This document shows positions 39,490 to 57,849 of a stretch of DNA of 64,000 bases, in pieces; positions within the stretch are counted from its first letter, which is position 1, and each line of letters begins with the position of its first letter. The stretch is from a virus (taxonomy: Duplodnaviria > Caudoviricetes): positions 2,018-66,017 of IMG/VR virus record IMGVR_UViG_3300016654_000214; one strand, 5' to 3'. The notes beneath the pieces were generated by a model. It was not told the origin of the DNA. It did not search any database and was given only the letters and a program-made list of their open reading frames with translations. Position numbers and translations under genes: made by a program.

Positions 39490-39517
39490 ACGTCCTGGGT
39501 ATGACGTTAAACTGCCT
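39490..39517 (+). ncRNA. Repeated H-type pseudoknot motif, copy 1
   Basis: ACGTC-CT-GGGTA-T-GACGT-TAAAC-TGCCT. Confidence 0.65.
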
Positions 39518-39540
39518 AATTTTTTTACTCAATTCAACTC

Positions 39541-39684
39541 ATGACTCAACAACTCGACGCAAACTACAACGCTGACTTGCTTGATGCCATGGCTGACATG
39601 GCATATGAACAAGAGCAAGCCATGCGTGAATCCGATCAATCTGAATGGGAGGGCGTTATTTATGACGACGAAGACGCCTCATAA
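39541..39684 (+). CDS. Very acidic 47-aa peptide
   Basis: Manual translation MTQQLDANYNADLLDAMADMAYEQEQAMRESDQSEWEGVIYDDEDAS; ACTCAATTCAACTC leader. Confidence 0.7.
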   Translation: MTQQLDANYNADLLDAMADMAYEQEQAMRESDQSEWEGVIYDDEDAS

Positions 39685-40081
39685 AGAGAACGACATCATC
39701 ATTGTCGTTATCGCAATTATTTCAATCATCATTACGGAGTTCATCTCATGCTTCATCCAGAAACCCAAGCCATCGCAGAAACCTTTGGCTACATCCCCTT
39801 CTCCGAAGAAGAGGGCTCAGAGCAGTTCCAGGCAGACATCACCTACGTCTCTGGTGAAACCAAACGTGAACCCAGGACAGGAGATGTCAAAGCCGACAAG
39901 AACAACACGCTCTGGGCCTACTGGAAGCCAAGGTACGCAGAAGAAGACCTCGAAGGTTGGTACGAAATCCCAAGCAACGAGGACATCGAAGAATGGTCGT
40001 TCGACAGCGTCTGCTTCACCCCAGGTGATGACGAAGTTGAACCAGACCATCCCGACAGCTGGCTCAGTATCCTCGGTTTGA
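39662..40081 (+). CDS. Possible N-terminally anchored membrane protein overlapping the next gene
   Basis: ATG 39662; IIIVVIAIISIIITEFI TM; the rest lies in an alternative frame of 39748..40086. Confidence 0.35.
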   Translation: MTTKTPHKENDIIIVVIAIISIIITEFISCFIQKPKPSQKPLATSPSPKKRAQSSSRQTSPTSLVKPNVNPGQEMSKPTRTTRSGPTGSQGTQKKTSKVGTKSQATRTSKNGRSTASASPQVMTKLNQTIPTAGSVSSV

Positions 40082-40086
40082 TTTAA
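39748..40086 (+). CDS. Acidic Trp-rich hypothetical protein
   Basis: 112 aa; C-terminal CFTPGDDEVEPDHPDSWLSILGLI. Confidence 0.7.
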   Translation: MLHPETQAIAETFGYIPFSEEEGSEQFQADITYVSGETKREPRTGDVKADKNNTLWAYWKPRYAEEDLEGWYEIPSNEDIEEWSFDSVCFTPGDDEVEPDHPDSWLSILGLI

Positions 40087-40337
40087 TGTCTACGCATCAG
40101 AAAGTAGAACAACCAGCGCTGACACTTCAACAACGCAACTTGTATCTGTATTATTTGGCACATCGCAAAAACCATGGTAAACAACCATGTTTCGTGCCAA
40201 AGCTTACAGCTCGAGTTTCTCGGTTGCCTGATTACCTCAGAGCATTAGAGAAGTTAGAGAAATACAAGTTAATTTCTGTTGATCGCAGCGCTGATAATTA
40301 CACGGCATGGATCATCAAAGATCCTGCCAACACATAA
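40086..40337 (+). CDS. LexA-like winged-HTH DNA-binding protein
   Basis: LTLQQRNLYLYY...HG...YLRALEKLEKYKLISVDR resembles the LexA N-terminal domain. Confidence 0.45.
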   Translation: MSTHQKVEQPALTLQQRNLYLYYLAHRKNHGKQPCFVPKLTARVSRLPDYLRALEKLEKYKLISVDRSADNYTAWIIKDPANT

Positions 40338-40469
40338 GTTTTACTTATATCTGGTATGGGATATTCCTTGATAAATACAAGGCTATCCCCCAGACCCCCG
40401 TAGGGGAGTACCAGAGAGTAATCCTTTTATTAGTAGAAGTATTCCCTTTATCAACCCAATTCATCAACC

Positions 40470-40769
40470 ATGACAACACCAACTACCTATCCAACTATTG
40501 ATTGGAAGAAGAATGAGTATGTCCATGTTCAAGAAGCATTGACCATCCTCAAAGATGTCATTGCTCGTGAAGATAAACGACATGAGATGGATCAACATCT
40601 CACACCTTCAATGTACTCATTGATTGCTTATGAAATCATCCCAATGATTCAAAATGAATTGGATTATGAGGATTGTGATCCAACACCAAACGAACCTGGT
40701 GAACCACCTATTACTGCAGTTGAAATGCACACTGCTGCATGGAAGCAACACCAGCAAATGCACTCGTAA
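40470..40769 (+). CDS. Hypothetical protein
   Basis: 99 aa with a C/A-rich leader. Confidence 0.65.
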   Translation: MTTPTTYPTIDWKKNEYVHVQEALTILKDVIAREDKRHEMDQHLTPSMYSLIAYEIIPMIQNELDYEDCDPTPNEPGEPPITAVEMHTAAWKQHQQMHS

Positions 40770-40781
40770 ATCTTAAGAGAA

Positions 40782-40851
40782 GATGAAGAAGCAGGGGGCT
40801 GGGTCGCATTAGACCCTAAGTCAGGTGCGGCCTGACGCCCCTTGCTTCATC
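40782..40851 (+). ncRNA. Three-way-junction structured RNA candidate
   Basis: Long P1 (GATGAAG..CAGGGGGC / GCCCCTTGCTTCATC), P2 GGGTC/GACCC, P3 GTCAGG/CCTGAC; intergenic. Confidence 0.55.
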
Positions 40852-41017
40852 GTTGATATTCCGATGGTTGCCTGAAAACCAACGGAATCCCCTTTTAAAC
40901 AATCTGCTGGCCAGCAGGTCCCTGCAGGAGACGTGCTCATTGTAACCACATTGCAATGTCCTTGGCCAGCCTTTGACAACCTTGGTAGACTTAACGCATT
41001 CAACTCAGCTCAGTCTT

Positions 41018-41314
41018 ATGGATGATCGATTATTGATGATCGATGAGGTCATCGACAAATTTAATTTTGAACGTGTGCACATTGCCATGACAGCATTGGA
41101 TTGGCAATGGCAAACAACAGCAGGTAATGGGCACGCAGTGCCTACACTACCCAGACTCAAAGCTATGGCCAGGCACTTGCTCATGGAAGCCATGAAAAAC
41201 AAGGTGGTTGGTACTGGTGGATTCGAAGCTCGTTACCATCCAAAGGTGGATGATGAATCAGAGTATTTCGAATTGAAATTCATTTTATGTGAATCTGATT
41301 CTTACGATGATTGA
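41018..41314 (+). CDS. Hypothetical protein
   Basis: ATG 41018; IDKFNFERVHIAMTALDWQW pattern. Confidence 0.65.
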   Translation: MDDRLLMIDEVIDKFNFERVHIAMTALDWQWQTTAGNGHAVPTLPRLKAMARHLLMEAMKNKVVGTGGFEARYHPKVDDESEYFELKFILCESDSYDD

Positions 41315-41531
41315 TTCAATACAAACAGAAAGATACAATCAAATTTTTAATGTTGTATCTCGTTGTATTGCTCATCCACATTCAACACTTGTGCCTCATG
41401 ACAAACAACGTGCACTTGCTTTGATTTCATTCCTTTCCAAAGAGGATGAAATGGTTGATTATTTTTACTCTCAAATGAGTGAAGATGATGCCAAAGCAGT
41501 AAAACACATTCGTAAATCAATTCATGACTAA
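41307..41531 (+). CDS. Hypothetical protein
   Basis: ATG 41307 overlapping the upstream stop. Confidence 0.55.
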   Translation: MIDSIQTERYNQIFNVVSRCIAHPHSTLVPHDKQRALALISFLSKEDEMVDYFYSQMSEDDAKAVKHIRKSIHD

Positions 41532-41727
41532 AAAGTCAGCCTTTAACTTTGATCGCACCATACACGGTGTCAACATCACCGAGCATGGCATCAAATCATT
41601 CACCAAATCAATTCAGCTTGGGCCGTTTCAGCTAACGCTGAACGCCCGTAAGTCTGGTGTCTTGGGATCTATATCAATCCCTGGCACCGGCTTGTCCAAG
41701 CGCAACATCAAACTCTTTGATTTCTAA
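41524..41727 (+). CDS. DUF4236-like small protein
   Basis: KSIQLGPFQLTLN..KSGV..SISIPGTGLS. Confidence 0.55.
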   Translation: MTKKSAFNFDRTIHGVNITEHGIKSFTKSIQLGPFQLTLNARKSGVLGSISIPGTGLSKRNIKLFDF

Positions 41728-41734
41728 TCAACTC

Positions 41735-41920
41735 ATGTCAGCTCAATCCGACTGTCTTGATCTGTTTGATCGGATCAATCTTGCTAACTGTGCAATGGAA
41801 CGTGCCCGTATTAACGTTCTTGACCAAGATCGTTTTTACGGTGAGTACAAAACCGCAAGGTTTTGGACTAAGTACCGTTGCATGATTACCAAAGAATACT
41901 CCTACGTGGATTACACCTGA
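41735..41920 (+). CDS. Hypothetical protein
   Basis: ATG after an AATCAACTC leader. Confidence 0.6.
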   Translation: MSAQSDCLDLFDRINLANCAMERARINVLDQDRFYGEYKTARFWTKYRCMITKEYSYVDYT

Positions 41921-42177
41921 TGTCTGTACTTGCAATCGAAGACACCACTATCGACGGAATCAATGTCACTGTTACAGCAGTTGTTGACGAAATGCGGTTG
42001 CTTTACAAAGCAACTCATCTCGACCCTGAAGAATGGGCTCCTGCATTATGCACAGCTTCTTTCGAGCTGGATGAAGGAGAACAAGTTCCTACTGACGAAG
42101 ATAGCTTCTGTAGCTATCTTGATTCACTCGATCTTAACTGGCAACTCCTCGACACCTCCGATTGGAATTTAGACTAA
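41920..42177 (+). CDS. Acidic hypothetical protein
   Basis: TGATG coupling; 85 aa. Confidence 0.65.
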   Translation: MSVLAIEDTTIDGINVTVTAVVDEMRLLYKATHLDPEEWAPALCTASFELDEGEQVPTDEDSFCSYLDSLDLNWQLLDTSDWNLD

Positions 42178-42434
42178 TGATTGGTTTCTCCATCGAATTC
42201 AAACGTTGGTACATCACCTTGCGTGGTCCCAAAGGCAGAGTTTATCTGTGCACTGGGTTTGCCAAACGTTTACCTGTGTTTATCTCACCTGCTCAAGCTT
42301 ATGCATTTGAGCAAGCTATTGACGATAGTCATTCTGCAATCCTTGCAGAAGAATGGATTGACAATGTAGAAGATGACGAAACAGATGACGAAACTGATGA
42401 AGAACTTCTTAATCAGTTGAAATCTATTCGTTAA
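42177..42434 (+). CDS. Hypothetical protein with acidic C-terminus
   Basis: TAATG coupling. Confidence 0.6.
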   Translation: MIGFSIEFKRWYITLRGPKGRVYLCTGFAKRLPVFISPAQAYAFEQAIDDSHSAILAEEWIDNVEDDETDDETDEELLNQLKSIR

Positions 42435-42439
42435 CACCA

Positions 42440-42467
42440 CGTCCTGAGCATGACTTTAAACTGCTCA
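42440..42467 (+). ncRNA. Repeated H-type pseudoknot motif, copy 2
   Basis: CGTC-CT-GAGCA-T-GACT-TTAAAC-TGCTCA; S2 is compensated (GAGCA/TGCTC). Confidence 0.65.
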
Positions 42468-42500
42468 TCACTACAAATTCACTTTGAACTCAACTCATGC

Positions 42501-43043
42501 ATGAAACCTAACTTACTCCCACCAGTTAAATATCTTCAACAAATGTTTTACTTGGATACAAATTCTCCAAGTGGATTGCGTTGGCGTAAAGCACCCAGTG
42601 CTTGGACCAAAGCAAACTCAATTGCTGGTATCCAACGAACTAAAGATCATTACTGGCGCGTACGTTGGAAGTACCAAGGTAAAGCTGTAGATTATATGGC
42701 TCATCGAATTGTGTATGCATTACAACATGGCTGCGATCCTGCTGACATGTTTGTTGATCACATACACAATGACAAAGACAACAACAAACCTTTGCGTTTA
42801 GCTACTAAACTGCAAAACTCTCAAAATCGAAACGGTCGCAAAAACACAACAAGCATTTATAAAGGTGTTTGTTTGATTAAAGCAACCGGGCGATGGCGTG
42901 CCACTATTCGTGTTGATAAACAATTCAAACACATCGGTGTTTACGCAACACAAGAAGAAGCAGCTTTGGCTTACAACGAAGTTGCTTTGTTATATTTTGG
43001 TGAGTTTGCTCGCCTTAATCAAATCAATTCATCTCAAAACTAA
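42501..43043 (+). CDS. HNH homing endonuclease with AP2 domain
   Basis: YMAHRIVYAL...VDHI...LRLAT...QN plus AP2 YKGV...GRWRATIR...HIGVYATQEEAALAYNEVALLYFGEFARLN. Confidence 0.88.
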   Translation: MKPNLLPPVKYLQQMFYLDTNSPSGLRWRKAPSAWTKANSIAGIQRTKDHYWRVRWKYQGKAVDYMAHRIVYALQHGCDPADMFVDHIHNDKDNNKPLRLATKLQNSQNRNGRKNTTSIYKGVCLIKATGRWRATIRVDKQFKHIGVYATQEEAALAYNEVALLYFGEFARLNQINSSQN

Positions 43044-43045
43044 CC

Positions 43046-44761
43046 ATGCAATTTGCTCTTCCCTCTAACCTACAAACTGAACTGCTTGCTTACGACCCCA
43101 CGCTTAAGAAGCTGGCACAAGCAAGCAAACCCAAGACTCAAAGCAAGAAAGCCAAGTATCCCCTTGGTAATGTCGGTGCATTGATTCCAACGGAAGTCAT
43201 CCGTGAATCACTGCAGCAGGATGCTATAGACAACATCAACGGCGTTGGTGTTGCTTCAAGGTATCAATTGTTTACACGATTTCAAGATCAGAAATCTGTA
43301 CCTGTTGCAATCATTTATCACTTTGAGCAATGCTGGTATGCAGCATGGCTACCACCCAAAGGTAAAGAGAACGAATATATTTACGGCTACACCATTGCAT
43401 TCAAGAACAACAACGCTGCATCCAAATCAGTTCCTCATGCACTGTGGACCAGTCGTGAGGACATGGAGCTACGTACAGTTGGTCGTTCTGAAATTTATTA
43501 TCGTACACGGCTGATCAACAAGTACGACATTCAAGCTGGCAACGATGGCCGCCACTGGCGTGCCATGGGTGTTGCTAACTACTATCAAAAGTCACGCGAC
43601 ATTCATGAAGCGTTGACCAAGTTTGAAGATCAACTGCGTGCGAGCATTCCATCTTGGGATGATGCACGCGGAATGTTTGATCGTATCAAATGTTCCTGCG
43701 TAGCAGATGCACTAGAACTTGACAAGCTTCAAGGATACTGGGCTATTGGTAAAGTCAGCAAGCACGAGTGGATACCATCGGTAGATAACTTCTTTCGTAT
43801 TGTTGACTATTACTATGCACTCAGTGGTTATGAAGGATGCGAGTACCGTGATGTACAACGCATCCGTCACATCATTGATAAACCATTCTTTCGTCGTTGG
43901 ATTCAACGACGTTGTGATGACATCATTGAAAACTACAACAATCCAAACAACAGAATACTGAAAGTTATTCGTCGTCCATGGAAACAGATTGCACATCTGT
44001 GTTATGTCATCAACAGTGTGCATACCCTGTGGCCTGATGCTCCGCTTGATTATTATCAAACTTATCTAGATGCACTGCTAAACATTCGGCTGCGTCAAAG
44101 TGCAAACGATCAAACCATTGAATGGATTAGGCAACACATGGGTGTTGCATCGTATTTCAAAATGATTGATAAGCATTTTCATCGGATGCTTAAGGAATGT
44201 ACTGATGCTCGTTATGCCTATCTTTTTGATTCAGATCTTGATTGTTATCAATTTTCATTTAGTGATTGGACTGATACTTTGTCCATGCTTTCCCGTGTAC
44301 TGGAAGCTGGCGTAACAGTAGAAGCTCCTAAACGTTGGCGTATTGAAGAATTCCATGATCACATCCAGGCTGAGTCCTGGAAGATTAAGAATCCAAATGA
44401 AGGACTGCCCCAGGATTTATTCCCGCAGCCCGTCAAGGTTCAACATGACGGTCAGTCATGGTCATTCTTCCAACCGGTTGATACCCATCAACTTGCTATG
44501 TGGGGTCAAGCCGTACGCAATTGCGTTGGCTCTGCATCCCATTACGCTGAGGACTGCAAGAAGAAGAAGCACTTCATTGTGCTTTGCATGCTTGATGGCA
44601 AACCTCAGTTCACCATCCAGCTCACCGTAGACATGGGCATGATGTCCGTCAAACAGATTGCTGGTATTGCCAACCAACGATTGACGGACGAGCAGAAGGA
44701 TCAGTACACCGCAGCATTCAAGCTTGCATTGCAAGAACGCGAATCTGCGCTACAGTCCTGA
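43046..44761 (+). CDS. Large protein with C-terminal PcfJ-like domain
   Basis: EFHD...QLAMWGQAVRNCVG...KPQFTIQL...VKQIAGIANQR. Confidence 0.7.
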   Translation: MQFALPSNLQTELLAYDPTLKKLAQASKPKTQSKKAKYPLGNVGALIPTEVIRESLQQDAIDNINGVGVASRYQLFTRFQDQKSVPVAIIYHFEQCWYAAWLPPKGKENEYIYGYTIAFKNNNAASKSVPHALWTSREDMELRTVGRSEIYYRTRLINKYDIQAGNDGRHWRAMGVANYYQKSRDIHEALTKFEDQLRASIPSWDDARGMFDRIKCSCVADALELDKLQGYWAIGKVSKHEWIPSVDNFFRIVDYYYALSGYEGCEYRDVQRIRHIIDKPFFRRWIQRRCDDIIENYNNPNNRILKVIRRPWKQIAHLCYVINSVHTLWPDAPLDYYQTYLDALLNIRLRQSANDQTIEWIRQHMGVASYFKMIDKHFHRMLKECTDARYAYLFDSDLDCYQFSFSDWTDTLSMLSRVLEAGVTVEAPKRWRIEEFHDHIQAESWKIKNPNEGLPQDLFPQPVKVQHDGQSWSFFQPVDTHQLAMWGQAVRNCVGSASHYAEDCKKKKHFIVLCMLDGKPQFTIQLTVDMGMMSVKQIAGIANQRLTDEQKDQYTAAFKLALQERESALQS

Positions 44762-44777
44762 CGGCCGAGCCCAAGTT

Positions 44778-44809
44778 GACCAGCCTTAGCCTCGATACTA
44801 GGGCTGGTC
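44778..44809 (+). promoter_or_regulatory. 12-bp intergenic hairpin (processing or stability element)
   Basis: GACCAGCCTTAG-CCTCGATA-CTAGGGCTGGTC. Confidence 0.55.
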
Positions 44810-44817
44810 CTTACCTC

Positions 44818-45036
44818 ATGACTGACTACACCGATGATCAACTCCTAGCCATGGCCATGGCAAACATCGGAGAATTCATTCACGACAATTCACCTCAGTA
44901 CATCCTCATCGAGGAAGACCCTCGCAATGAGGAAGACTACGACACATGGGAATATGGCACTGAACCATTGCCCCATGATCACACTTGGCACTCAGCATCC
45001 ATTGATGTTGAGGTAAGTCCAAGTGAGCCCGAGTAG
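44818..45036 (+). CDS. Acidic small protein
   Basis: ATG 44818; its stop overlaps the tRNA 5' end. Confidence 0.6.
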   Translation: MTDYTDDQLLAMAMANIGEFIHDNSPQYILIEEDPRNEEDYDTWEYGTEPLPHDHTWHSASIDVEVSPSEPE

Positions 45037-45102
45037 CCCAGCGGAAGAGGCAAGCGACTTAAAATCGCTCCAGCGTGAGTTCGAATCTCACCTCGGGTAC
45101 CA
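45027..45102 (+). tRNA. trnL: tRNA-Leu(TAA), 76 nt, short variable loop, encoded CCA
   Basis: Acceptor GCCCGAG/CTCGGGT plus ACCA; D arm GCC/GGC; anticodon arm AGCGA-CTTAAAA-TCGCT; T arm GTGAG-TTCGAAT-CTCAC. Confidence 0.92.
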
Positions 45103-45124
45103 CTCAACTCAATTCATTACAACA

Positions 45125-45487
45125 ATGGAATTCCTTTCCGCTTTTCGTCATCTTATCCCTGAGTTCCACGCTTACTCTGATGAAGAGCAGCGTTACAACA
45201 TTGGAGCAACCTGGACAGCGGCTGACGGTCTTAAGGACTATCACAACCTTGAACTACGGTACGTTCGAAACTCAGAGCGTCTTGCCCTCCAAGGTGATCC
45301 CCAGCCTGATGGCAGCTGGAAGTATGTGGAACCCTGCGGTCGTGTCCACACCATGTCCGCAGACCGAGCCAAGCTGTTCATGGAACAGACCCATGCCCAT
45401 GCCAACATCATGTGCGGCATGCTGGACCGGCTCAAGGAAGCAGGATTGCTTGAACAGGTAGTGGACACCAGTGCCCAACCTGCCTAG
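45125..45487 (+). CDS. Hypothetical protein
   Basis: ATG 45125 after the tRNA and an ACTCAACTCAATTCA leader. Confidence 0.7.
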   Translation: MEFLSAFRHLIPEFHAYSDEEQRYNIGATWTAADGLKDYHNLELRYVRNSERLALQGDPQPDGSWKYVEPCGRVHTMSADRAKLFMEQTHAHANIMCGMLDRLKEAGLLEQVVDTSAQPA

Positions 45488-45506
45488 TATTCATACGGAA
45501 TGTTCG

Positions 45507-45534
45507 GCCCCTGCCTTGGCGGGGGCTCTTTCTT
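45507..45534 (+). terminator. Probable terminator
   Basis: GCCCCTGC-CTTG-GCGGGGGC-TCTTTCTT. Confidence 0.5.
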
Positions 45535-46561: not shown

Positions 46562-46562
46562 T

Positions 46563-47413: not shown

Positions 47414-47475
47414 ACGTGACATGGAAGAGTGGTTAGCCGAGGGTCACGGCCGCTTGTTTTTTTAATTCTTTGACA

Positions 47476-47769: not shown

Positions 47770-47797
47770 GGACCTGAGCACGTCCTTAAACTACTTA
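47770..47797 (+). ncRNA. Repeated H-type pseudoknot motif, copy 3 (stem 1 inverted)
   Basis: GGAC-CT-GAGCA-C-GTCC-TTAAAC-TACTTA. Confidence 0.6.
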
Positions 47798-47832
47798 TAA
47801 GCTACGCTTATCAATTCAATTCAATTCAACTC

Positions 47833-48603
47833 ATGAAACTCCTCAAGTTTTCTACCGGCAACGGTAAGCTCAAGAATCGTTTAATTTTTTCGTTGCCAGC
47901 GGGTTATGCCTGTCCCCACGCTGGTGTTTGCAAGACCTTTGCTGATCGCGCCACAGGATCTATTACTGATTTGCCTCAGTACACAGGCGTCGAAGCAACC
48001 AATGAATACCGTTGCTTTGCTGCTATGGCAGAGGTTAGGCCTAACGTCCGAGAGGCTCGTTGGCACAACTGGGATTTGTTGCGTGAAACACTGCACATGA
48101 ATGGCAACCAAGCGTTGTTATTGCGTGACTTGATTGACATGTCATTGTTGATGCATCCGCCCAAGCAACTGGTTCGCATCCATGAGTCCGGTGACTTCTG
48201 GACTGAGAACTACATGAAGGCTTGGATGATGGTGGCGCAAGAGCGGCCCCAACAAAAGTTCTATGCCTACACCAAATCGCTAGGCATGTGGTACAACCTA
48301 CGGGAATCTATTCCATCCAACTTCTACCTGACCGCATCCTTTGGTGGCACACTTGATTACCTCATTCCTAAATATCCTGAGGTCTTCAAGCGGGTGGCAC
48401 ATGTGGTCTACACAGAACAGGATGCAGCTACACAAGGTCTGGAGATTGACCATGACGACAGCCACTGCCTAGGCGACAAACCGTTTGCACTTCTGGTGCA
48501 TGGCAGCCAGCGAGCTGGGTCAGAAGCCAGCCAAGCCATTGCTCAACGTAAGAAGGAAGGGGGATTTGTGGGATACGGCAAATCAAATCCTCATAAATCC
48601 TGA
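47833..48603 (+). CDS. Gp88-like protein (Cys-rich, Fe-S/radical-SAM-like)
   Basis: GNGKL...FSLPAGYACP.AGVC...YRCFA...VRIHESGDF...FYAYTKS. Confidence 0.7.
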   Translation: MKLLKFSTGNGKLKNRLIFSLPAGYACPHAGVCKTFADRATGSITDLPQYTGVEATNEYRCFAAMAEVRPNVREARWHNWDLLRETLHMNGNQALLLRDLIDMSLLMHPPKQLVRIHESGDFWTENYMKAWMMVAQERPQQKFYAYTKSLGMWYNLRESIPSNFYLTASFGGTLDYLIPKYPEVFKRVAHVVYTEQDAATQGLEIDHDDSHCLGDKPFALLVHGSQRAGSEASQAIAQRKKEGGFVGYGKSNPHKS

Positions 48604-50691: not shown

Positions 50692-50703
50692 CCAACATTA
50701 CTA

Positions 50704-51784: not shown

Positions 51785-51817
51785 CTTTACCAACACAAGT
51801 AAAAGCGACTAATCATC

Positions 51818-52168
51818 ATGACTAACCAATTCCGTGTGGCTGGGCAAGACCTTCAGCCCAATTCCATCATCCTTAACACAAGGGACACCAAAGAAATCGC
51901 CAAGTTTACTGAAGACGGTTTCTACTACAAAGGTGAGTTTGTTGATGACGCCGGAGAGGTGCATCGTTTGTTCAAAGAGGTGATGTATGAAATGCAACAC
52001 AGCAAGTGGAAAGATTTGTGTAAAGATCTTGTAAATGATCTTGCGTGGTGGCTTGAAGGTAATTGCAAGCCTTCAGATTATCCAGACAAGGAAGAAGCTA
52101 GTTTTCAATTACTAAAACGTGCTGAAAGCGAGTTAAAACTTGATGAATCCATTAGTGGAAAGGACTAA
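51818..52168 (+). CDS. Hypothetical protein
   Basis: 116-aa ORF. Confidence 0.6.
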   Translation: MTNQFRVAGQDLQPNSIILNTRDTKEIAKFTEDGFYYKGEFVDDAGEVHRLFKEVMYEMQHSKWKDLCKDLVNDLAWWLEGNCKPSDYPDKEEASFQLLKRAESELKLDESISGKD

Positions 52169-52235
52169 TGAGTGTTCCTGATTATCTTTTTTGTGCTTTT
52201 TGTTTGCTCTGTGTCACTTATTATTTTTCAAGACA

Positions 52236-52589
52236 ATGACTGACCAATTTGTTGACGCTAACAAAATGGTGCCGATCACCCCACCGCCGGAGCTGGTAGA
52301 CCAGTGGTGGAGCGAGGTTGGCGAAGTTCGCAGCGCCGGTTTTCGCATTGCTTTACACATCGCCACCCAGGCCGCCCGCTGGGGCGCTGACCAAGAGCTG
52401 GAGGCGTGCTGTGAGTGGCTGGACAATGACGACTTTCGAGAGCTTTCAGAAGAACTCCGCGCCGCCCGCCGCCCCAAGCCGCCGAGCTTGAAGGAGCAGG
52501 CGCTGGAGATTCTGAATGCAAGGTTTGATGCTTTGCCTCCCATCGATGCTGGCACCATCCGCCGCGCTCTCGAATCTCTGCCCTCGTAG
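52236..52589 (+). CDS. Hypothetical protein, MTDQFV...WGADQ family (copy 2)
   Basis: ITPPPELV...WGADQELEACCEWL...KPPSLKEQAL. Confidence 0.65.
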   Translation: MTDQFVDANKMVPITPPPELVDQWWSEVGEVRSAGFRIALHIATQAARWGADQELEACCEWLDNDDFRELSEELRAARRPKPPSLKEQALEILNARFDALPPIDAGTIRRALESLPS

Positions 52590-52609
52590 ACAACATCACT
52601 ACCACCACT

Positions 52610-52825
52610 ATGCCCGTTACAACTATCAAACGATGCCAGTCTGATCCCGACTGGTGGTACACAGTCGAAGATTGCAATGTTGAAGTTTACGATGAGCCGG
52701 ACAGTGGGTTGACAATCAAGGCTCACGATGAGCACAGAAGGGATGGCACCATTCTTCTTTCTATTAACAAGGAGGACGCTTTGTTGATCCGCGATGCTAT
52801 CAATCAGCTTTATCCGCCCTCTTAG
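52610..52825 (+). CDS. Hypothetical protein
   Basis: 71 aa; CACTACCACC leader. Confidence 0.6.
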   Translation: MPVTTIKRCQSDPDWWYTVEDCNVEVYDEPDSGLTIKAHDEHRRDGTILLSINKEDALLIRDAINQLYPPS

Positions 52826-52842
52826 TCCACCTCACTACCACC

Positions 52843-53103
52843 ATGACTAACCCCACCCCACTGAGCCCCGCCGCGCAGGCGGTTGTAGCTGCTATTGAAA
52901 AATTTGACTGGGAATCTGGTCATTTCTCCCGTGAAGAGATTTGGGCTTTATCGAAAGAGGTGACCGCCGCCGCCCTGCGTGCTGCTGCTGCCAATTATCG
53001 TTCCAAAGTGTCATATGCCCTTCCAAATAAATTTGTTAATGGTGTGTTGACTGTTGCAAACGCATTAGATGAAATCGCCGACGAGCTGGAGGGTGCGCAA
53101 TGA
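52843..53103 (+). CDS. Hypothetical protein, LSPAA...AAALRAAA family (copy 2)
   Basis: Shares the ELEGAQ end with copy 1. Confidence 0.65.
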   Translation: MTNPTPLSPAAQAVVAAIEKFDWESGHFSREEIWALSKEVTAAALRAAAANYRSKVSYALPNKFVNGVLTVANALDEIADELEGAQ

Positions 53104-53630
53104 CCACCGACTTTCGCGCCCTGTGCGCTGAGCTAATTGATGTGTGGGACGCCGCCACCGATCAGGATCTGCTCGACATGCACGAGGCGATAGAACGCGC
53201 CCGCGCCGCCCTGGCCAAGCCCGAGCCGGATGGGCCGACGAATCAAGAGATTGAAGAGTGGGCAGACGCTTGCTCCGAAGCGCCGCTGGAAGAACTGGAC
53301 CCAGAGGTTCACGGCTGGAGGCGGTGCTTTACAGCTCAGGAGTTCAGCAAAACAATCCGAGCTGCTTTGGCCCGCTGGGGCCGATCAGATGGACCGGCTG
53401 TGCCCGACGGCAGGGAACCGGCCTCTGTCACTGCTGAGCCTAGCGACGATGAGCTGTTGAGCCTTGAGCAACTGCGCAACGCATGGAACGCTCAGGCAGA
53501 TGCCGCGAACAACTGGGACGAGCTGGGCGTTGACGAGATCATCTGGTGGGCGCAGCGCCAAGCACTCGCCCGCTGGGGCCTCCCAACTACCGAGGAATCC
53601 TCGGCAGCTCAGCCCGCCGCCCCCTCGTAG
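53100..53630 (+). CDS. Hypothetical protein, MTTDFRALC family (copy 2)
   Basis: Modular: DGPT, ALARWG and EPASV blocks. Confidence 0.65.
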   Translation: MTTDFRALCAELIDVWDAATDQDLLDMHEAIERARAALAKPEPDGPTNQEIEEWADACSEAPLEELDPEVHGWRRCFTAQEFSKTIRAALARWGRSDGPAVPDGREPASVTAEPSDDELLSLEQLRNAWNAQADAANNWDELGVDEIIWWAQRQALARWGLPTTEESSAAQPAAPS

Positions 53631-53645
53631 TCGGAGCAACTAATC

Positions 53646-53672
53646 CGTCCTAGGTATGACGTTAAACTGCCT
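53646..53672 (+). ncRNA. Repeated H-type pseudoknot motif, copy 4
   Basis: CGTC-CT-AGGTA-T-GACG-TTAAAC-TGCCT. Confidence 0.65.
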
Positions 53673-53693
53673 TACACCTAACTTCTCGAACTC

Positions 53694-54494
53694 ATGAACT
53701 TTGCATGCATGTACGCGTATCTGTCAGAAGATCCGCGTGAGGTTTTTACCTCTGCAAACTCAACTGCCATGCGGTGCAGCGTTATGCTGCCACCCGTGGG
53801 TAACAAAGCACCAACTCAACTTGACCTCAACATCTATGGCAAAAACGCCGAGCGTTTCTCCAGGCTTCGCAAAGGAACCTATGTCTACGTTCACGGCGCC
53901 AAGCTACGCTTTGACCTTGAGAACAGGACACACTCGCTCCATGGCGGCACTGTTGTACAGGTCAATGATCAGTTCCCGATGCTTAACACCGTCATCCTCG
54001 GCGGGCGTTGCGTTAAAGACATTGCTACAGACGATGCCAGGGCGTTTAAAACTACGGAAAGTGGGTTGATGATCTGCAATCAAACCTTGTCTGTTAATAC
54101 GGGCAGGAACCAAGCAGATCTGTTTAACTTCTATGCCATTAATACGGCAGAAGATAAATTAAACAACGCTGAACTTTTAGTGAATTTCACCAGAAAAGGA
54201 ACAGGGTTGACGATCCAAGGCAGGCTGGTTACTGATGCCTGGAAAGATCCCAATGGTGAAAAGAAATCTCAGACCAAGATTCAGTTGGTGTCTATGACAC
54301 TGGCACCCAAAGGCAATGCTGGACCCACGCAGGAGATCAAGCCGTCGACCACACTGTCGTCTGATTCGGCTGCTCCCCTGTGGGGCGGGCGTGGGTCAGA
54401 AGAGGAAAGTGATCCTTGGTCTGTGACTACGGGTCTGCCGGATCTGCCTGGCCAGTACGGCGCTGCACCTGAATTAGAGGAAGCACCTTTCTAA
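53694..54494 (+). CDS. ssb: Single-stranded DNA-binding protein with two tandem OB folds
   Basis: Two SSB-like halves (RLRKGTYVYVHG; NTVILGGR...TRKGTGLTIQGRLVTDAWKD..GEKKS) and an EEAPF tail. Confidence 0.8.
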   Translation: MNFACMYAYLSEDPREVFTSANSTAMRCSVMLPPVGNKAPTQLDLNIYGKNAERFSRLRKGTYVYVHGAKLRFDLENRTHSLHGGTVVQVNDQFPMLNTVILGGRCVKDIATDDARAFKTTESGLMICNQTLSVNTGRNQADLFNFYAINTAEDKLNNAELLVNFTRKGTGLTIQGRLVTDAWKDPNGEKKSQTKIQLVSMTLAPKGNAGPTQEIKPSTTLSSDSAAPLWGGRGSEEESDPWSVTTGLPDLPGQYGAAPELEEAPF

Positions 54495-54793
54495 TGGAAT
54501 CTCCTATGGATTATGAAGCTGTAGTACCAGTTGGTGTTGAGCTTCCGCACGATACTTTTATGTTGTTGCATCAAGATGGCAATAGCCAGAACATGACAAC
54601 ATTCACAGAAGTATTTGCTGACAACATTGTTCGTCACATTGTTGATTTCTTGCGTGGTTGTGGTCACTACGATGATGTGATTTATGGCTGCATGCGAGAC
54701 ATTGCTGACGAATACTTTGATTGTCAAGAAAAGAAACAGGATGCTTTGCGCTCCAAGTCTTCTGATCTAGACTCAGACTCCGTCCTGGGATGA
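54494..54793 (+). CDS. Hypothetical protein
   Basis: TAATG coupling; IVDFLRGCG motif. Confidence 0.6.
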   Translation: MESPMDYEAVVPVGVELPHDTFMLLHQDGNSQNMTTFTEVFADNIVRHIVDFLRGCGHYDDVIYGCMRDIADEYFDCQEKKQDALRSKSSDLDSDSVLG

Positions 54794-54813
54794 CGTTAAA
54801 AGCACCATGCCCA
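54781..54813 (+). ncRNA. Repeated pseudoknot motif, copy 5 (divergent; overlaps the upstream stop)
   Basis: CGTC-CTGGGAT-GACG-TTAAAA...; S2 possibly TGGG/CCCA. Confidence 0.45.
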
Positions 54814-55928
54814 ACTCAGACATCACCATGACTGCAACTCCGACTGACATGATGACCGATCAGTGGATGGATGAACTTGAATCCGAAACCACTTCTGCAC
54901 CTTCTCTGAAAACCACCAACAAAATGACTGTGAAGAAAACCTCTGCTCTTGCAACCCGTGGGCTGGAATCTTTCAAGATGTTCCAGTCCAAAGAATTTGT
55001 GTCTGGCTACCAGAATCTGGTGACCATTCAGCCGCTGAACAAGTCTAAAACTCGTGGTTGGTTTGTTCGTAAGTCCGATCTGGATACCTGTGGTTGGACT
55101 GCTACGGAAGATCAGTTTGCTAAAGGTTCTGTTATCTGGAACTACAAGCAAACCTTTGGTATGGCACCCAACACCTCCATTGAGGAAGGACTGAACTTCA
55201 CTGAGCCTCGCGTTCAGATCCTGCTGCGTTCTCCCTTAATGGTGGAAGAGACCGGCGGCATGCGCCAAACTATTGGCACCTTTGAGAACCCTGAAGTCAA
55301 GGCCCTGTTTGATGACGACAAGGTTGCCTCTGATTTGGCTAACAGCAAAGGTGAGATGTACAAGCGCCGTTACAGCGTGCGTACCAAATACCTGGTGTAC
55401 ATTCTGACCCAGGACAACAAGCGTGCTCACAAGATTCCGATGGTGCTGACCCTCAAAGGTCTTAATGGCACCGACGTATCTGAGAAGGTACGCATGTATG
55501 AGAAGGAAATGTCCAAGTGCCTGAGCAAGGCGCTCGATGCAGAAGTGCCCTTAAGCTTTAATGAAAAGTTCTACGCCACTACCGTTTTTGCTCCGGTACT
55601 TGCCAATGAAATGCGTGGAGCCAACAACGTTGAGATCTGCGCAATCGAATCTTTTGACATCCCTGATTACAGCACTCAGGAAGATGCCATCGAATCGCTG
55701 AGCCGCATGTCGATTCCTGATGAAGATCGGGAATCAACCTGGAAGTTCCAGGAACTGTTCAACGATTACATCAACATTCATGCCAAGCAGGATGCTGAAA
55801 AGCTTGGTGGTGCCTATGGCATCAAGGATGGTGTCGAGATTCTGCCAGTGTCCCGCACTACAGATCCTGTGGATGTCAAGGCACTGCCTGCTCGTGACCC
55901 CATGACCGGAGAAGACGATTCACTTTGA
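54807..55928 (+). CDS. DUF5895-like protein (putative ssDNA-binding/annealing)
   Basis: RGWFVRKSDLDTCGW, LLRSPL, YLVYILTQDNK..HKIPMVLTLKG; acidic tail; high-expression codon bias. Start may be ATG 54828. Confidence 0.5.
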   Translation: MPNSDITMTATPTDMMTDQWMDELESETTSAPSLKTTNKMTVKKTSALATRGLESFKMFQSKEFVSGYQNLVTIQPLNKSKTRGWFVRKSDLDTCGWTATEDQFAKGSVIWNYKQTFGMAPNTSIEEGLNFTEPRVQILLRSPLMVEETGGMRQTIGTFENPEVKALFDDDKVASDLANSKGEMYKRRYSVRTKYLVYILTQDNKRAHKIPMVLTLKGLNGTDVSEKVRMYEKEMSKCLSKALDAEVPLSFNEKFYATTVFAPVLANEMRGANNVEICAIESFDIPDYSTQEDAIESLSRMSIPDEDRESTWKFQELFNDYINIHAKQDAEKLGGAYGIKDGVEILPVSRTTDPVDVKALPARDPMTGEDDSL

Positions 55929-56177
55929 TGGAATGTCTGGGTTAGTCAGGTCACTTTGTTCAACAGCAACGTTGTTGAAAATAAAGATGTCCTGAACTAA
56001 CCCACGAATAACACCTTGACGTTGAGTGGCGATCCGCGCAAGCAGGGTCGCCATTTCTTTCAAGACACTTACCGAGTTACATTCATCAATGGAACGTTTG
56101 ATTTTTTCTTCCCAGAACTTATCTTCCATTGAAGGTTCGATCTGGAATTTACTTAGTGGGACGTACTTAATTTCCAT
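55920..56177 (-). CDS. Second NblA-like protein (divergent)
   Basis: PSMEDKFWEEKIKRSIDECNSVSVLKEMATLLARIATQRQGVIRGLV aligns to the NblA two-helix pattern with one insertion. Confidence 0.5.
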   Translation of the reverse strand: MEIKYVPLSKFQIEPSMEDKFWEEKIKRSIDECNSVSVLKEMATLLARIATQRQGVIRGLVQDIFIFNNVAVEQSDLTNPDIPSK

Positions 56178-56219
56178 TTGTACACCACATAACAATTCAT
56201 TCTAGTTCTAATTAAACAG

Positions 56220-56426
56220 ATGAATTCTAAAGAAAAAGCTGCAATTGTTACAGCTGGAACGTTTGGTGCAGTAGGTGCCAGTGTACTGGCTGTTGTTGGA
56301 AACCCCGTTGCTTGGGGTCTGCTTGCTTACGCCACGTATCGTGTTGCTAAAAAAGCTTATGCGGCCTACGAACCAGCGTCTAAACTCAAGGGCAAAGAGG
56401 ACCAGGACACGGGCCTCTTCATCTGA
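56220..56426 (+). CDS. Small membrane protein with glycine zipper
   Basis: AGTFGAVGASVLAVVGNPVAWGLLAY. Confidence 0.6.
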   Translation: MNSKEKAAIVTAGTFGAVGASVLAVVGNPVAWGLLAYATYRVAKKAYAAYEPASKLKGKEDQDTGLFI

Positions 56427-56450
56427 TTCCAACTCAACTCAATTCAAATC

Positions 56451-57398
56451 ATGTCAATCAAAACCCACCAGGAACTCAACGCGGCGCAGGCGTGCATCTA
56501 CACGCGGTCAAATCTCCGGCGTGCGTTCAAAGATTTTGACGACACTGACATCGCCGGGATCTATCTGCGAGATGATTCTTGCCTTGTGGTGCGGCGTGAT
56601 GGTAGTGAGCAAACTTACAACCGGCCGCTAATCCAACATGCTTTTATGGATTACACCCAAAGGCTGAAGGATTTCTTTTCATATTTGGGACCTAACTACA
56701 GAGGTCCAAGCATCTGGCACAACAGTGCCTACATTATGTTTAAAGGTTGGCACTATACCCATGCCCTTGGACACATCACAGCCAACGCGCAGCTCCAGGC
56801 GCATTGGGCAGATCGATTCATACATCTATCAGACCCGGCAAAACTTACGGCGCTTCTCCAATCTGACCAAACGGACTTGGGGCATTTGGTGGCGCCGGAC
56901 GGGTTGCGGCTTCCGAATCGCGGGGTTGACCTTGACTCTGAGCTGGAGGAAGAAACCTCAAGCGTACCGGCAGTCAATGCTGAACCTTATTGCTCATGTG
57001 GGTCCTTTCAGCGTCAGCTTCTTAATGTTTCAGAGTTTCAACAAGAGATCCAAGGGTTCAGACCCTGGTGTATTCATCTGACTTGGTTTCACAAATATCG
57101 GGAGTTGCTGTGCAAGCGTACGGAAGCACGCAATGCCAGCCCTGGTGGTACACCTGATAAGTGCGTGGCATGGTGGTACGCACCTCCTTCTGATGCCACC
57201 AGTGATGGACGTTTTGTTTTACTGCACACCAAATCTGGTGCACAAGCACCGCTAACCCATTGGCGTACTTACAAACCTAAAAAAGTGTTTACCCAACATG
57301 ATGCATGGGATTTGTTTTTCAATATGTTGGAGGCAGGCTATGTCCCGTTCCCTGGAATAGCATTACCTCAGCTCCAAGCCGCAGTCAAGAAATCATGA
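56451..57398 (+). CDS. SWIM zinc-finger domain protein
   Basis: YCSCGSF...WCIHL. Confidence 0.7.
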   Translation: MSIKTHQELNAAQACIYTRSNLRRAFKDFDDTDIAGIYLRDDSCLVVRRDGSEQTYNRPLIQHAFMDYTQRLKDFFSYLGPNYRGPSIWHNSAYIMFKGWHYTHALGHITANAQLQAHWADRFIHLSDPAKLTALLQSDQTDLGHLVAPDGLRLPNRGVDLDSELEEETSSVPAVNAEPYCSCGSFQRQLLNVSEFQQEIQGFRPWCIHLTWFHKYRELLCKRTEARNASPGGTPDKCVAWWYAPPSDATSDGRFVLLHTKSGAQAPLTHWRTYKPKKVFTQHDAWDLFFNMLEAGYVPFPGIALPQLQAAVKKS

Positions 57399-57634
57399 CT
57401 GACGACACCAAACAACTTATTGACAGGGCTATTGCTTTGCTTGAAAGTTACCCACCAACTCTTATGTCACAAACAACAGAACGTTACGATCTTGAACTGG
57501 ATCAAGATACGCATTGGGGTCTCGTAAAACTTGGTGCAGAACTTAAGATGCATGCAGAAACCTATGCAGAAGAGGTATTAAAAGCACATGTCGAACACGA
57601 GCTGGGTAAACAAACTTCATGTGGAAGTGATTGA
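57395..57634 (+). CDS. Hypothetical protein (possible ribbon-helix-helix)
   Basis: ATGA-coupled; YDLELDQDTHWGLVKLGAELKMHAETYAEEVL. Confidence 0.55.
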   Translation: MTDDTKQLIDRAIALLESYPPTLMSQTTERYDLELDQDTHWGLVKLGAELKMHAETYAEEVLKAHVEHELGKQTSCGSD

Positions 57635-57803
57635 TGAAGATGACGGCAGTTGCACAATTCGTATTGAATGGGATGAAACTGATCCAGAGTTAGCGGAGTG
57701 GACTAGCTGGGGCGAAGCGGGGCAAAGGGATTTTGTTATTGATGCCCTGTACTCCGCCTTGGAGTGCTTTGTTGACAATGACTTGACAGAGCCGGTAGAC
57801 TAA
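57588..57803 (+). CDS. Acidic small protein
   Basis: 71 aa. Confidence 0.6.
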   Translation: MSNTSWVNKLHVEVIDEDDGSCTIRIEWDETDPELAEWTSWGEAGQRDFVIDALYSALECFVDNDLTEPVD

Positions 57804-57822
57804 CTCCGCTTGCAGGTGAAGC

Positions 57823-57849
57823 CGTCCTGGGCATGACGTAAAACTGCCT
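57823..57849 (+). ncRNA. Repeated H-type pseudoknot motif, copy 6
   Basis: CGTC-CT-GGGCA-T-GACG-TAAAAC-TGCCT. Confidence 0.65.

Follow-up and report, generated by a model that had tools for sequence, protein, structure and literature searches.

A small H-type RNA pseudoknot repeated ahead of phage early genes belongs to a widespread family and is a candidate cistron-boundary element

Why should a phage place the same 27-nt sequence, able to fold into a pseudoknot, in front of one early gene after another? The question is raised by a 64-kb stretch of phage DNA, hereafter the window, for which an initial annotation listed six such copies and proposed that they form a phage RNA regulon, acting as an operator sensed by the single-stranded DNA-binding protein (SSB), as a ligand switch or as a block to 5' nucleases.

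Five of the six copies are strong. When the window was scored with a covariance model built from 143 distinct family members, they gave 35-45 bits with E values of 3e-11 to 2e-8 (Table 1), and the annotated pattern, allowing up to three mismatches, was met at 39492, 42441, 47771, 53647 and 57824, all on the plus strand, where shuffled sequences are expected to yield none. In the same model search, neither the minus strand nor the structural region of the window yielded a credible copy. The five lie on the coding strand before start codons, as first described, upstream of early and replication genes. The downstream genes were also correctly named, encoding HNH_3+AP2, PcfJ-like, GP88, SSB and DUF5895 proteins; the SSB is a PF00436 OB-fold protein, and GP88 recurs downstream of the knot across the family. 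The annotated stem pairings stand, apart from a C-A mismatch in stem 2 of copy 3 (GAGCA/UACUU) and an unpaired outer position in stem 1 of copy 2 (CGUC/GACU); loop 3 of copy 5 reads UAAAAC. Relatives (L250, L296 and L297) have the GGAC/GUCC form of stem 1 seen in copy 3 at a site about 3 kb upstream of SSB.

Table 1. Pseudoknot copies and neighbouring signals in the window
Feature	Position	Strand	Sequence or content	Basis and score	Surroundings
Pseudoknot copy 1	39491..39518	+	CGUC-CU-GGGUA-U-GACG-UUAAAC-UGCCU-A	Pattern match; 42.0 bits	Upstream ORF ends at 39438; the gap after it holds inverted repeat CCACC/GGTGG (read from the sequence); 23-nt leader without G, then ATG 39541 (47-aa ORF)
Pseudoknot copy 2	42440..42467	+	CGUC-CU-GAGCA-U-GACU-UUAAAC-UGCUC-A	Pattern match; 44.9 bits	5 nt past TAA of ORF 42162-42434; ATG 42498 (HNH_3+AP2 endonuclease) 31 nt on
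Pseudoknot copy 3	47770..47797	+	GGAC-CU-GAGCA-C-GUCC-UUAAAC-UACUU-A (stem 1 swapped)	Pattern match; 40.7 bits	36 nt from knot end to ATG 47833 (GP88)
Pseudoknot copy 4	53646..53673	+	CGUC-CU-AGGUA-U-GACG-UUAAAC-UGCCU-U	Pattern match; 37.8 bits	21 nt from knot end to ATG 53694 (SSB)
Pseudoknot copy 5	57823..57850	+	CGUC-CU-GGGCA-U-GACG-UAAAAC-UGCCU-G	Pattern match; 35.4 bits	23 nt from knot end to ATG 57873
Decayed copy	54781..54815	+	Stem 1, loop and UUAAAA retained	12.1 bits, E 0.11
G-poor leader	39519..39543	+	Ends in AACUCAUG		Example, after copy 1
Terminator-like hairpin	57749-57767	+		Sequence; not evidence of function	Followed by the sigma-70-like site
Best sigma-70-like site of the region	57772-57801	+	TTGACA-18-TAGACT	Consensus scan only; not evidence of function

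The sixth site, at 54781, did not hold up as an intact copy. Its stem 2a is one nucleotide short, stem 2b is displaced, with none adjacent, and only model positions 4-24 align. The site contains the TGA stop of ORF 54494-54793, and the DUF5895 gene (start 54807) begins within it. Relatives have the knot intact at the corresponding position, about 250-300 nt past the SSB gene, and the window site is thus a decayed copy.

Each strong copy is followed by a G-poor leader that ends in AACUCAUG at the start codon, and the leaders together contain 5 G in 133 nt. AACTCATG occurs six times in the window, five of these at knot-linked starts. No Shine-Dalgarno sequence was seen on inspection of these leaders; those that occur elsewhere in the family are well beyond the knot on its 3' side. 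A transcript started from the sigma-70-like site in Table 1 would leave copy 5 about 15 nt from its 5' end.

Within the family the knot is 27-28 nt long, with the consensus NGWC-CU-GAGYA-W-GWCN-UUAAAC-URCUC-A: a 4-bp stem 1, loop 1 (CU), a 5-6-bp stem 2, a 1-nt junction and loop 3 (UUAAAC). In 143 distinct instances 91.5% of cells pair, versus 79.1% in shuffles, and control alignments that were slid gave 23-48%. There are 183 double-sided changes, against 67.7 +/- 6.6 in shuffles, a number reached by none of 500 shuffles. Agreement comes from 81 distinct instances that were located through the SSB protein instead of the motif, in which 97.5% of cells pair and four of the five stem 2 pairs show compensatory changes (for example GAGCA/UGCUC, AAGCA/UGCUU, GGACA/UGUCC, GAAUA/UAUUC). 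Stem 1 covaries freely, with A-U and U-A at 61:64 alongside C-G and G-C. The initial annotation was right that the element is an H-type pseudoknot whose two stems covary. G·U outnumbers A·C by 83:24 and 43:11, about 4:1 overall, which indicates that the sense strand is the one that folds. Conservation beyond pairing is concentrated in the loops and the stem junction, as would suit a knot of the luteovirus type, driven by tertiary structure.

The family is far larger than one phage. More than 120 viral contigs carry it, as do more than 119 from bacteria or archaea of many phyla, and the settings include prophages, phages unrelated to one another and regions that resemble conjugative elements; named phages that carry it are Staphylococcus aureus Phietavirus, Geobacillus D6E, Synechococcus S-EIVl and S-H35 and Mycobacterium Labelle, and the hosts include Vibrio and Polynucleobacter. 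Genomes hold several copies, ahead of unrelated genes, tRNAs and ribozymes. No Rfam 15 family matched the knot, in keeping with the earlier view that this is no named family, and a literature search found no published description of it. The window copies are members of a very large, uncatalogued family of phages and other mobile elements, a breadth that lends no support to a phage-specific regulon as the general function.

The positions that the knot occupies follow rules. Upstream genes are co-directional with it in 159 cases versus 14, and all 114 hits near SSB lie on the gene strand. The distance from the preceding stop codon (TAA 84, TAG 26, TGA 23) is almost never 0-3 nt and is typically 4 (9 cases), 5 (32), 6 (17) or 7 (22) (n = 194); the knot thus sits just beyond the footprint of a terminating ribosome. 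On the other side, tRNA 5' ends mostly follow after 2-13 nt and type III hammerhead cleavage sites after 5-12 nt, and pistol and DUF2800 RNAs adjoin the knot. Convergent genes flank it in 15 cases, and in 8 it comes after divergent genes, placements which indicate that it serves either end of a message. In about 8% of copies a T-run comes directly before the knot, in some with a visible terminator hairpin ahead of it, and such copies cannot cap the message upstream. The distance to the next start is broad, exceeding 60 nt in about 40% of cases.

Neighbouring genes are diverse. Upstream are HSP20, HU, SSB, MCP and ArdA genes, and downstream, besides integrases and a porin, the commonest are capsid scaffold genes (19 of 122, from two Pfam families). 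The neighbours are often abundant proteins. In the S. aureus phages and Geobacillus D6E, the knot lies between a minor head or portal gene and the scaffold/capsid genes, and in the former it is a conserved island whose flanks differ on either side. The same slot ahead of phage scaffold (GP20) genes is taken by the GP20-a and GP20-b motifs (RF02991, RF03003) and by structured RNA candidates upstream of GP20 and GP32 genes (PMC10690425), which were proposed to be cis-acting with mechanism unknown. These are longer, at 72-107 nt, and unrelated, and an Rfam scan of the knot-bearing scaffold loci found neither. Type III toxin-antitoxin RNAs of the ToxI kind consist of 34-45-nt units repeated in tandem immediately before an endoribonuclease gene (ToxN, AbiQ or CptN). 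Copies of the knot are single and dispersed, with no ToxN-like family in the tallies of downstream genes, and this assignment was rejected.

A close structural likeness is to the -1 frameshifting pseudoknots of luteoviruses and enamoviruses, the BWYV type of about 28 nt. Shared are a 4-5-bp stem 1, a 2-nt loop 1 beginning with C, a 1-nt junction and a 6-7-nt A-rich loop 3; the 4-7 nt between the decoded codon and the knot is likewise the spacing that places a knot at the mRNA entrance of the ribosome. However, the knot described here follows a stop codon instead of a slippery heptamer, its stem 2 is longer, no consistent extended frame runs through it, and it also occurs without an upstream gene. 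With no slippery site in the window spacers, a role as a frameshift stimulator was discarded.

Fold, strand, spread and positional rules are thus in hand, and the reading that we favour, tentatively and at somewhat short of even confidence, is that the knot is a protein-independent element of cistron boundaries, a nuclease roadblock and an insulator of folding and translation. Each copy would be transcribed within a polycistronic phage mRNA and would form, unaided, a compact H-type pseudoknot in which loop 3 runs along stem 1. Phages and mobile elements would place it at the borders between RNA units, where a stable knot would be hard to pass for exonucleases and for endonucleases that depend on the 5' end, so that decay or processing begun on one side would not reach the other. 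The closed fold would also prevent upstream sequence from pairing with an adjacent start region, tRNA or ribozyme, and would shield these from ribosomes upstream. An unstructured leader ending in AACUCAUG is joined to the knot in this phage, which probably makes the composite a protected 5' edge of the start site, serving the HNH, GP88 and SSB genes and two small genes. The nuclease block of the initial annotation survives as part of this reading.

Several points weigh against the boundary reading. Tight packing by stop codons, tRNAs and starts could follow from the economy of phage genomes alone. The high sequence conservation that stem 2 and the loops keep from phylum to phylum could reflect catalysis or a partner common to all hosts (the ribosome, RNA polymerase or an RNase). 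The nearly fixed spacing of about 21-23 nt in the SSB lineage is explained at least as well by a translational role. The copies that follow a T-run tell against it as well. Moreover, RNase J, a 5'-3' exonuclease, is generally taken to be absent from Vibrio and Polynucleobacter, and a single nuclease target therefore cannot explain everything.

Such a translational role might be that of an enhancer or standby anchor, the knot docking on the 30S platform or on protein S1 at the 5' edge of the initiation footprint and raising initiation downstream. Of 74 loci located by way of the SSB protein, nearly all have a knot that ends about 15-23 nt (mostly 21-23) before the SSB ATG, a spacing that is nearly fixed across 55-91% protein identity whilst the upstream genes differ; the window leaders lack a Shine-Dalgarno sequence, and products often required in bulk (scaffold, SSB, a porin) lie downstream. 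Yet the broad start distances across the family, the many copies that precede a tRNA, a ribozyme or no gene, and the fact that the sharpest positional rule concerns the upstream stop codon and not the start make an enhancer unlikely.

Processing related to ribozymes, in which a pistol-like core gives cistrons defined ends by cleaving, by being cleaved or by attracting a universal RNase (RNase P, for instance), is likewise improbable. The pistol ribozyme (RF02679) and the knot share a short hairpin whose loop, of the CUGRGC type, pairs downstream, followed by U(A/U)UAAA(U/C): the pistol consensus cUCG-UCugGGC-GAg-uAUAAAuA may be set beside CGUC-CUGGGCAU-GACG-UUAAAC. As in pistol, the loop of the P1 hairpin takes part in a pseudoknot of about 6 bp before an A-rich linker. 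The knot also shares slots and direct adjacency with pistol, hammerhead and tRNA units, one family member lying directly 5' of a true pistol that scores 54.4 bits. However, the strand completing the pseudoknot follows UUAAAC directly, the leaders beyond it are G-poor and unpaired, and the pistol P2 and P3 helices and G-U cleavage site are missing; the Rfam pistol model matched none of the five window sites at E values up to 10. Ribozymes or tRNAs downstream bring their own cleavage, and the size of the knot counts against this reading, as no known natural self-cleaver is as small as 27 nt.

An operator was the first suggestion for this locus. In T4 gene 32 the operator consists of a 5' pseudoknot, an unstructured leader and the AUG, and the knot and leader before SSB (53646-53696 in the window, and about 70 relatives at a nearly fixed distance) have the same layout. 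A knot that nucleates SSB or another repressor onto the leader, as the T4 gene 32 pseudoknot does its repressor, might thus shut off early genes together, since knot, leader and AACUCAUG are common to five of them. In contrast to T4, the sequence differs and the SSB belongs to PF00436 instead of the gp32 family. Specificity fails too, as the knot stands before scaffold genes, integrases, tRNAs and ribozymes, before no gene at all, and between convergent genes in many phyla, which argues against an SSB-specific operator and makes a general regulon of this kind very unlikely. In this phage group, the composite of knot, G-poor leader and AACUCAUG may nevertheless have a lineage-specific operator role.

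It is highly improbable that the repeats act at the DNA level, whether as promoter, as operator or as recombination linker where modules meet, and that their RNA fold is incidental. UAAACU does resemble a -10 hexamer, BPROM-based annotations name an S. aureus copy 'putative promoter P5R', and the differing flanks in the S. aureus phages and differing genes upstream of the SSB copy are such as are seen at recombination joints. The P5R label is, however, a prediction only; in the window no -35 element lies at a workable spacing, and the sigma-70 consensus scan placed no promoter on any knot. Free covariation in stem 1 and compensation in stem 2 would be unexpected for a double-stranded protein site and, with the strand bias of the wobble pairs, favour pairing in a single strand, so that a sigma-70 promoter was rejected; where a 27-mer is shared, recombination is probably a side effect.

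A ligand-sensing riboswitch of the preQ1-I (RF00522) size class, suggested by the small size of the H-type pseudoknot, its A-rich 3' loop and the strong conservation of its loop bases, is scarcely credible, as no Rfam riboswitch matches, the 5-6 stable pairs of stem 2 overlap neither a ribosome-binding site nor a terminator and thus leave no expression platform at the 3' pseudoknot strand, and several copies per genome precede unrelated genes, tRNAs and ribozymes.

For the boundary element, the natural comparison is with the xrRNAs of flaviviruses and plant viruses and with the hairpins that stabilise bacterial mRNAs at the 5' or 3' end. Like an xrRNA, the knot would be a small protein-independent fold that stops processive nucleases and marks stable RNA segments; xrRNAs have a ring-like fold, whereas the knot is known here as a pseudoknot deduced from sequence. 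A literature search found no bacterial or phage xrRNA class. It is possible, though rather doubtful, that prokaryotes and phages have, in this knot, the first widespread equivalent of the viral xrRNAs, a 27-nt roadblock that needs no protein and acts from either side on exonucleases and possibly on scanning ribosomes. If so, neighbouring cistrons would be given different lifetimes, and the pistol ribozyme may be built on the knot, or the knot may be a stripped-down pistol.

The repeated element of this phage, 27-28 nt long and ordered stem 1a, CU, stem 2a, junction, stem 1b, UUAAAC, stem 2b, had been read in the initial annotation as an H-type pseudoknot in which both stems covary, and this reading was right. 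Among 143 distinct instances collected by motif, 91.5% of cells pair; shuffling the columns lowers this to 79.1%, and sliding the partners to 23-48%. Double-sided changes number 183, compared with 67.7 +/- 6.6 after shuffling, a count reached by none of 500 shuffles. The search patterns left the outer bases of stem 1 free, so the covariation test for this stem is unbiased; at its position 3, U-A occurs in 64 of the 143 sequences and A-U in 61. A second set comprised 74 loci found through the SSB protein alone, in which pseudoknots were then located with R1, a covariance model built from the 143 distinct family members. Here pairing reaches 97.5%, and two-sided changes are seen at four of five pairs in stem 2 and at two of four in stem 1, the stem 2 variants being GAGCA/UGCUC, AAGCA/UGCUU, AGGUA/UGCCU, GGACA/UGUCC, GAACA/UGUUC and GAAUA/UAUUC.

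The excess of G·U over A·C (83:24 in one set, 43:11 in the other), together with the co-direction of upstream neighbour genes (159 vs 14), points to an RNA structure on the sense strand. Nested folding of single sequences yields either stem 1 or stem 2 (-3 to -5.6 kcal/mol), as expected of a pseudoknot, for which the method and its z-scores (-2.0 to +0.2) are uninformative. The loops and junction show the pattern of conservation that a compact luteovirus-type knot, stabilised by triplexes, would be expected to have; C+·G-C and A-minor triples are predicted. A mimic of an anticodon loop was discarded, since the bases of the loop are paired to the 3' strand and change in step with it.

In the window, the originally proposed pattern, with up to three mismatches, finds five sites, all on the plus strand, where shuffles predict none. 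With flanks, their consensus is (C/G)G(U/A)C-CU-RRGYA-Y-G(A/U)C(G/U/C)-U(U/A)AAAC-URCYY. R1 scores them at 35-45 bits and, over the whole 64 kb, detects no further credible copy and none on the minus strand. Six copies had been claimed; the sixth, at 54781, scores only 12.1 bits, lacks one base in stem 2a as well as the adjacent stem 2b, and is overlapped both by the stop codon of one ORF and by the gene start that follows. In relatives the corresponding place, about 250-300 nt past SSB, holds a high-scoring pseudoknot, and the sixth site is therefore a decayed copy.

The window, part of a 66-kb IMG/VR viral contig, matches named phages at the nucleotide level only over 43 bases, in Synechococcus phage S-CBS2. 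The identities first given for the downstream genes hold (HNH_3+AP2, PcfJ-like, GP88, SSB (PF00436) and DUF5895), and a family A DNA polymerase lies near them. The HNH_3+AP2 endonuclease and PcfJ-like genes follow directly behind copy 2, and may form a mobile homing-endonuclease cassette with the pseudoknot as its border. A tRNA-Leu(UAA) gene, with no adjoining pseudoknot, lies within the early/replication gene block.

The repeated unit in the window extends beyond the pseudoknot itself. The stretch between it and the ATG, 21-36 nt long, is nearly free of G (5 in 133 nt), contains no Shine-Dalgarno sequence in any of the five leaders, and in each case terminates in the octamer AACUCAUG. Of its six occurrences in the window, five are at pseudoknot-linked start codons. 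Octamer and G-poor leader may be a start-site signature of this lineage, or the putative binding site of a translational regulator. Upstream of copy 5, a terminator-like hairpin is followed immediately by TTGACA-18-TAGACT, by consensus match the best sigma-70-like site in 38.5-58.4 kb. If this promoter-like site, about 15 nt upstream and likewise recognised by consensus match only, were used, copy 5 would be the 5' end structure of the transcript.

Positions of the pseudoknot copies and associated features
Feature	Sequence	Position	Strand	Remark
Pseudoknot, pattern matches	window	39492, 42441, 47771, 53647, 57824	+	copies 1-5
ORF overlapping the sixth site	window	54494-54793		stop codon overlaps 54781
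Octamer AACTCATG	window	39536-39543, 42492-42499, 47828-47835, 53689-53696, 57868-57875		at pseudoknot-linked starts
Octamer AACTCATG, sixth copy	window	41730-41737 (41735)		start of one gene without pseudoknot
Terminator-like hairpin, then TTGACA-18-TAGACT	window	57749-57801		just upstream of copy 5
HNH_3+AP2, then PcfJ-like	window	42498-44761	+	behind copy 2
tRNA-Leu(UAA) gene	window	45027-45102	+	no adjoining pseudoknot
Pseudoknot plus second hairpin or structured stretch	locus L161	about 4400-4523	-	
Pseudoknot plus second hairpin or structured stretch	locus L245	2529-2588		
Pseudoknot plus second hairpin or structured stretch	loci L083, L078, L139, L143			

The same fold is found far outside this phage. 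A loose pattern, in which only loop and linker bases were fixed, matched at least 120 stretches in a collection of viral contigs, and nearly every match listed is a complete motif whose stem 1 is complementary and varies freely. A similar pattern, run against one genome per prokaryotic species, matched at least 119 stretches; those listed include Cyanobacteria, Bacillota, Bacteroidota, Saccharibacteria and other Patescibacteria, Proteobacteria, Chloroflexota, Campylobacterota and a few archaeal MAGs. By BLAST against named phages, the motif is present in 83 Staphylococcus aureus Phietavirus records, in Vibrio phages, in Synechococcus phages S-EIVl, S-WAM1 and S-H35, and in Mycobacterium phage Labelle, Arthrobacter phage Molivia, Geobacillus phage D6E and others; against complete E. 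coli genomes it gave no match. Relatives of the window phage carry two to eight pseudoknots apiece, on a single strand and clustered within about 3-18 kb.

The view that the motif has no named Rfam family was borne out both at the gathering threshold, where the window yields only tRNA, and with Rfam 15 at lenient E-values, where nothing is found at the pseudoknot in the five window sites (E up to 10) or the named-phage loci (E up to 1). The pistol, preQ1 and GP20-a/b models have no match to it in the window or at those loci. Full-text searches by motif sequence and by topic (phage pseudoknots and ribozymes, xrRNA and RNase J, phage RNA motif surveys, scaffold mRNA processing) returned no description, although a survey of 10,006 viral RNA candidates (PMC10690425) may include the motif. 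The element is a member of a large, uncatalogued RNA pseudoknot family of phages and mobile elements.

The genes beside it are varied. Among 122 proteins encoded downstream, capsid scaffolding proteins from two Pfam families (DUF4355 and Phage_scaffold/GP20) account for 19 and integrases for seven, with GP88, DUF5895 and ArdC recurrent; upstream proteins include HSP20, DUF7249, DUF932, DUF3768, DUF2958, ArdA, HU, SSB and a major capsid protein. The recurrence of DUF7249, DUF3768, DUF932, DUF2958, ArdA and ArdC suggests regions of conjugative elements. In the window lineage each variant keeps to one downstream gene. The form with AGGUA or AAGCA accompanies SSB, at a spacing of mostly 21-23 nt; relatives also have the GGAC/GUCC form again some 3 kb upstream of SSB. 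GP88 is repeatedly the gene downstream of the pseudoknot.

In S. aureus phages and Geobacillus D6E the pseudoknot lies between a minor head/portal gene and the scaffold and capsid genes, and in the former it stays conserved as an island while the flank on its left, on its right or on both sides can differ. Other, unrelated structured RNAs, GP20-a/b, are known from the same pre-scaffold slot (PMC10690425). In Bacillota phages a U-run, AUGC and then another conserved hairpin or structured stretch separate the pre-scaffold pseudoknot from the Shine-Dalgarno sequence, so that the element there may be a composite of pseudoknot and hairpin. In Bacillus phage SPP1, a weak 'terminator' is listed at nt 6780-6824, between gene 10 and scaffold gene 11 (PMC6316719, Table 2). 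This stretch contains GGTTCAATTCC, which resembles a tRNA T-arm; the SPP1 slot may hold a different small RNA element.

Across the family, position follows certain rules. In 80 of 194 cases the pseudoknot starts 4-7 nt past the stop of a long same-strand ORF (4 nt, nine cases; 5 nt, 32; 6 nt, 17; 7 nt, 22), with a sharp lower limit, since a single case falls at 0-3 nt; the 4-7 nt spacing sets it just beyond a terminating ribosome. Among the SSB relatives the upstream genes differ, yet wherever a stop codon can be seen it usually lies 5-7 nt before the pseudoknot. Where tRNA genes follow, their 5' ends lie mostly 2-13 nt after the pseudoknot, with a few at 28-47 nt; cleavage sites of following type III hammerheads lie 5-12 nt after it, and a pistol ribozyme and DUF2800 RNAs abut it directly. 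Tandem pseudoknots also occur. A T-run is present within 12 nt after 28% of copies and before 8.5%. The pseudoknot lies between convergent genes in 15 cases, often squeezed by both stop codons, and after divergent genes in eight, which suggests that it can act at either end of a message.

Several individual loci on other contigs are worth recording. Tandems of pseudoknot and type III hammerhead recur (L236, with three copies, L131 and L330-L332), and L176 combines pseudoknot and pistol with a twister-P5 about 1.1 kb away. The DUF2800 motif (Rfam RF02960) starts right after the pseudoknot in three bacterial contigs (L173, L190, L210), and the published motif may thus have an unrecognised 5' module. 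In Deltaproteobacteria MAGs the motif may be coding: at L150 and L168 an in-frame reading makes it the last part of a small ORF, ...SPE(Q/H)DVKLL(I/T)-stop. A strong terminator hairpin follows it at L168, L186, L204 and L232. In Saccharibacteria contigs (L130, L146, L154, L191, L197, L199) it lies 6-9 nt past the upstream stop; at three scanned loci the upstream gene is DUF7249 (L191, L197) or DUF3768 (L154), and at L130, L154 and L197 a convergent gene ends within 6 nt on the other side.

What is said here of function is drawn from position and conservation. With both a promoter and a device dedicated to the SSB of this phage ruled out, an autonomous fold at borders remains, and the reading favoured, at slightly less than an even chance, is that of a protein-independent boundary element: a roadblock to exonucleases and 5'-end-dependent decay, and an insulator of folding and translation. 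The fold is set at the borders of RNA units, packed against ribosome footprints and cleavage sites as near as possible short of unfolding. In this phage it would form the protected 5' edge of an unstructured start region that has no Shine-Dalgarno sequence. xrRNAs and bacterial mRNA stabiliser hairpins would be analogous in this proposed function.

Three other roles may apply. The pseudoknot and its leader may together form a lineage-specific translational operator; the layout resembles that of the T4 gene 32 operator, in the window's lineage only. The element may alternatively be an enhancer that recruits ribosomes, or a processing element related to pistol. The pistol ribozyme, with its P1, pseudoknot and linker core, is the closest known system in sequence logic, but its catalytic arm is missing here and its model finds no match, so the element is not itself a pistol. 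Of the roles first proposed, a ligand switch is unlikely because there is no expression platform, and an SSB-sensed operator as a specific device is contradicted by how widely the family is spread and how varied its neighbours are; the initial observation was correct and significant, but its functional reading was too narrow. Frameshifting knots of the BWYV type are alike in architecture and size, whereas this one follows stop codons and has no slippery site; frameshifting or readthrough was rejected on that absence and on inconsistent frame. A plain double-stranded DNA promoter is excluded by covariation and strand bias; there is no -35 element, a consensus scan places no promoter on any pseudoknot, and the 'promoter P5R' features annotated in two S. 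aureus phages bear the label putative, one of them being given outright as a BPROM prediction. A ToxI-like antitoxin was dismissed, the copies being dispersed and single with no toxin gene nearby.

If the pseudoknot does set message boundaries, this would explain how adjacent genes of one phage operon can have very different outputs, such as portal versus scaffold and capsid, or SSB versus its neighbours. A boundary role would also hint at a reason for the clustering of small RNAs, ribozymes and tRNAs among them, in the same gaps, and synthetic operons would gain a compact insulator part of natural origin. Nearly every base of the element is conserved among phages of cyanobacteria, Bacillota, actinobacteria, proteobacteria, Saccharibacteria and others, and a 27-nt fold so widely conserved and absent from Rfam would rank among the most widespread uncatalogued RNA motifs.
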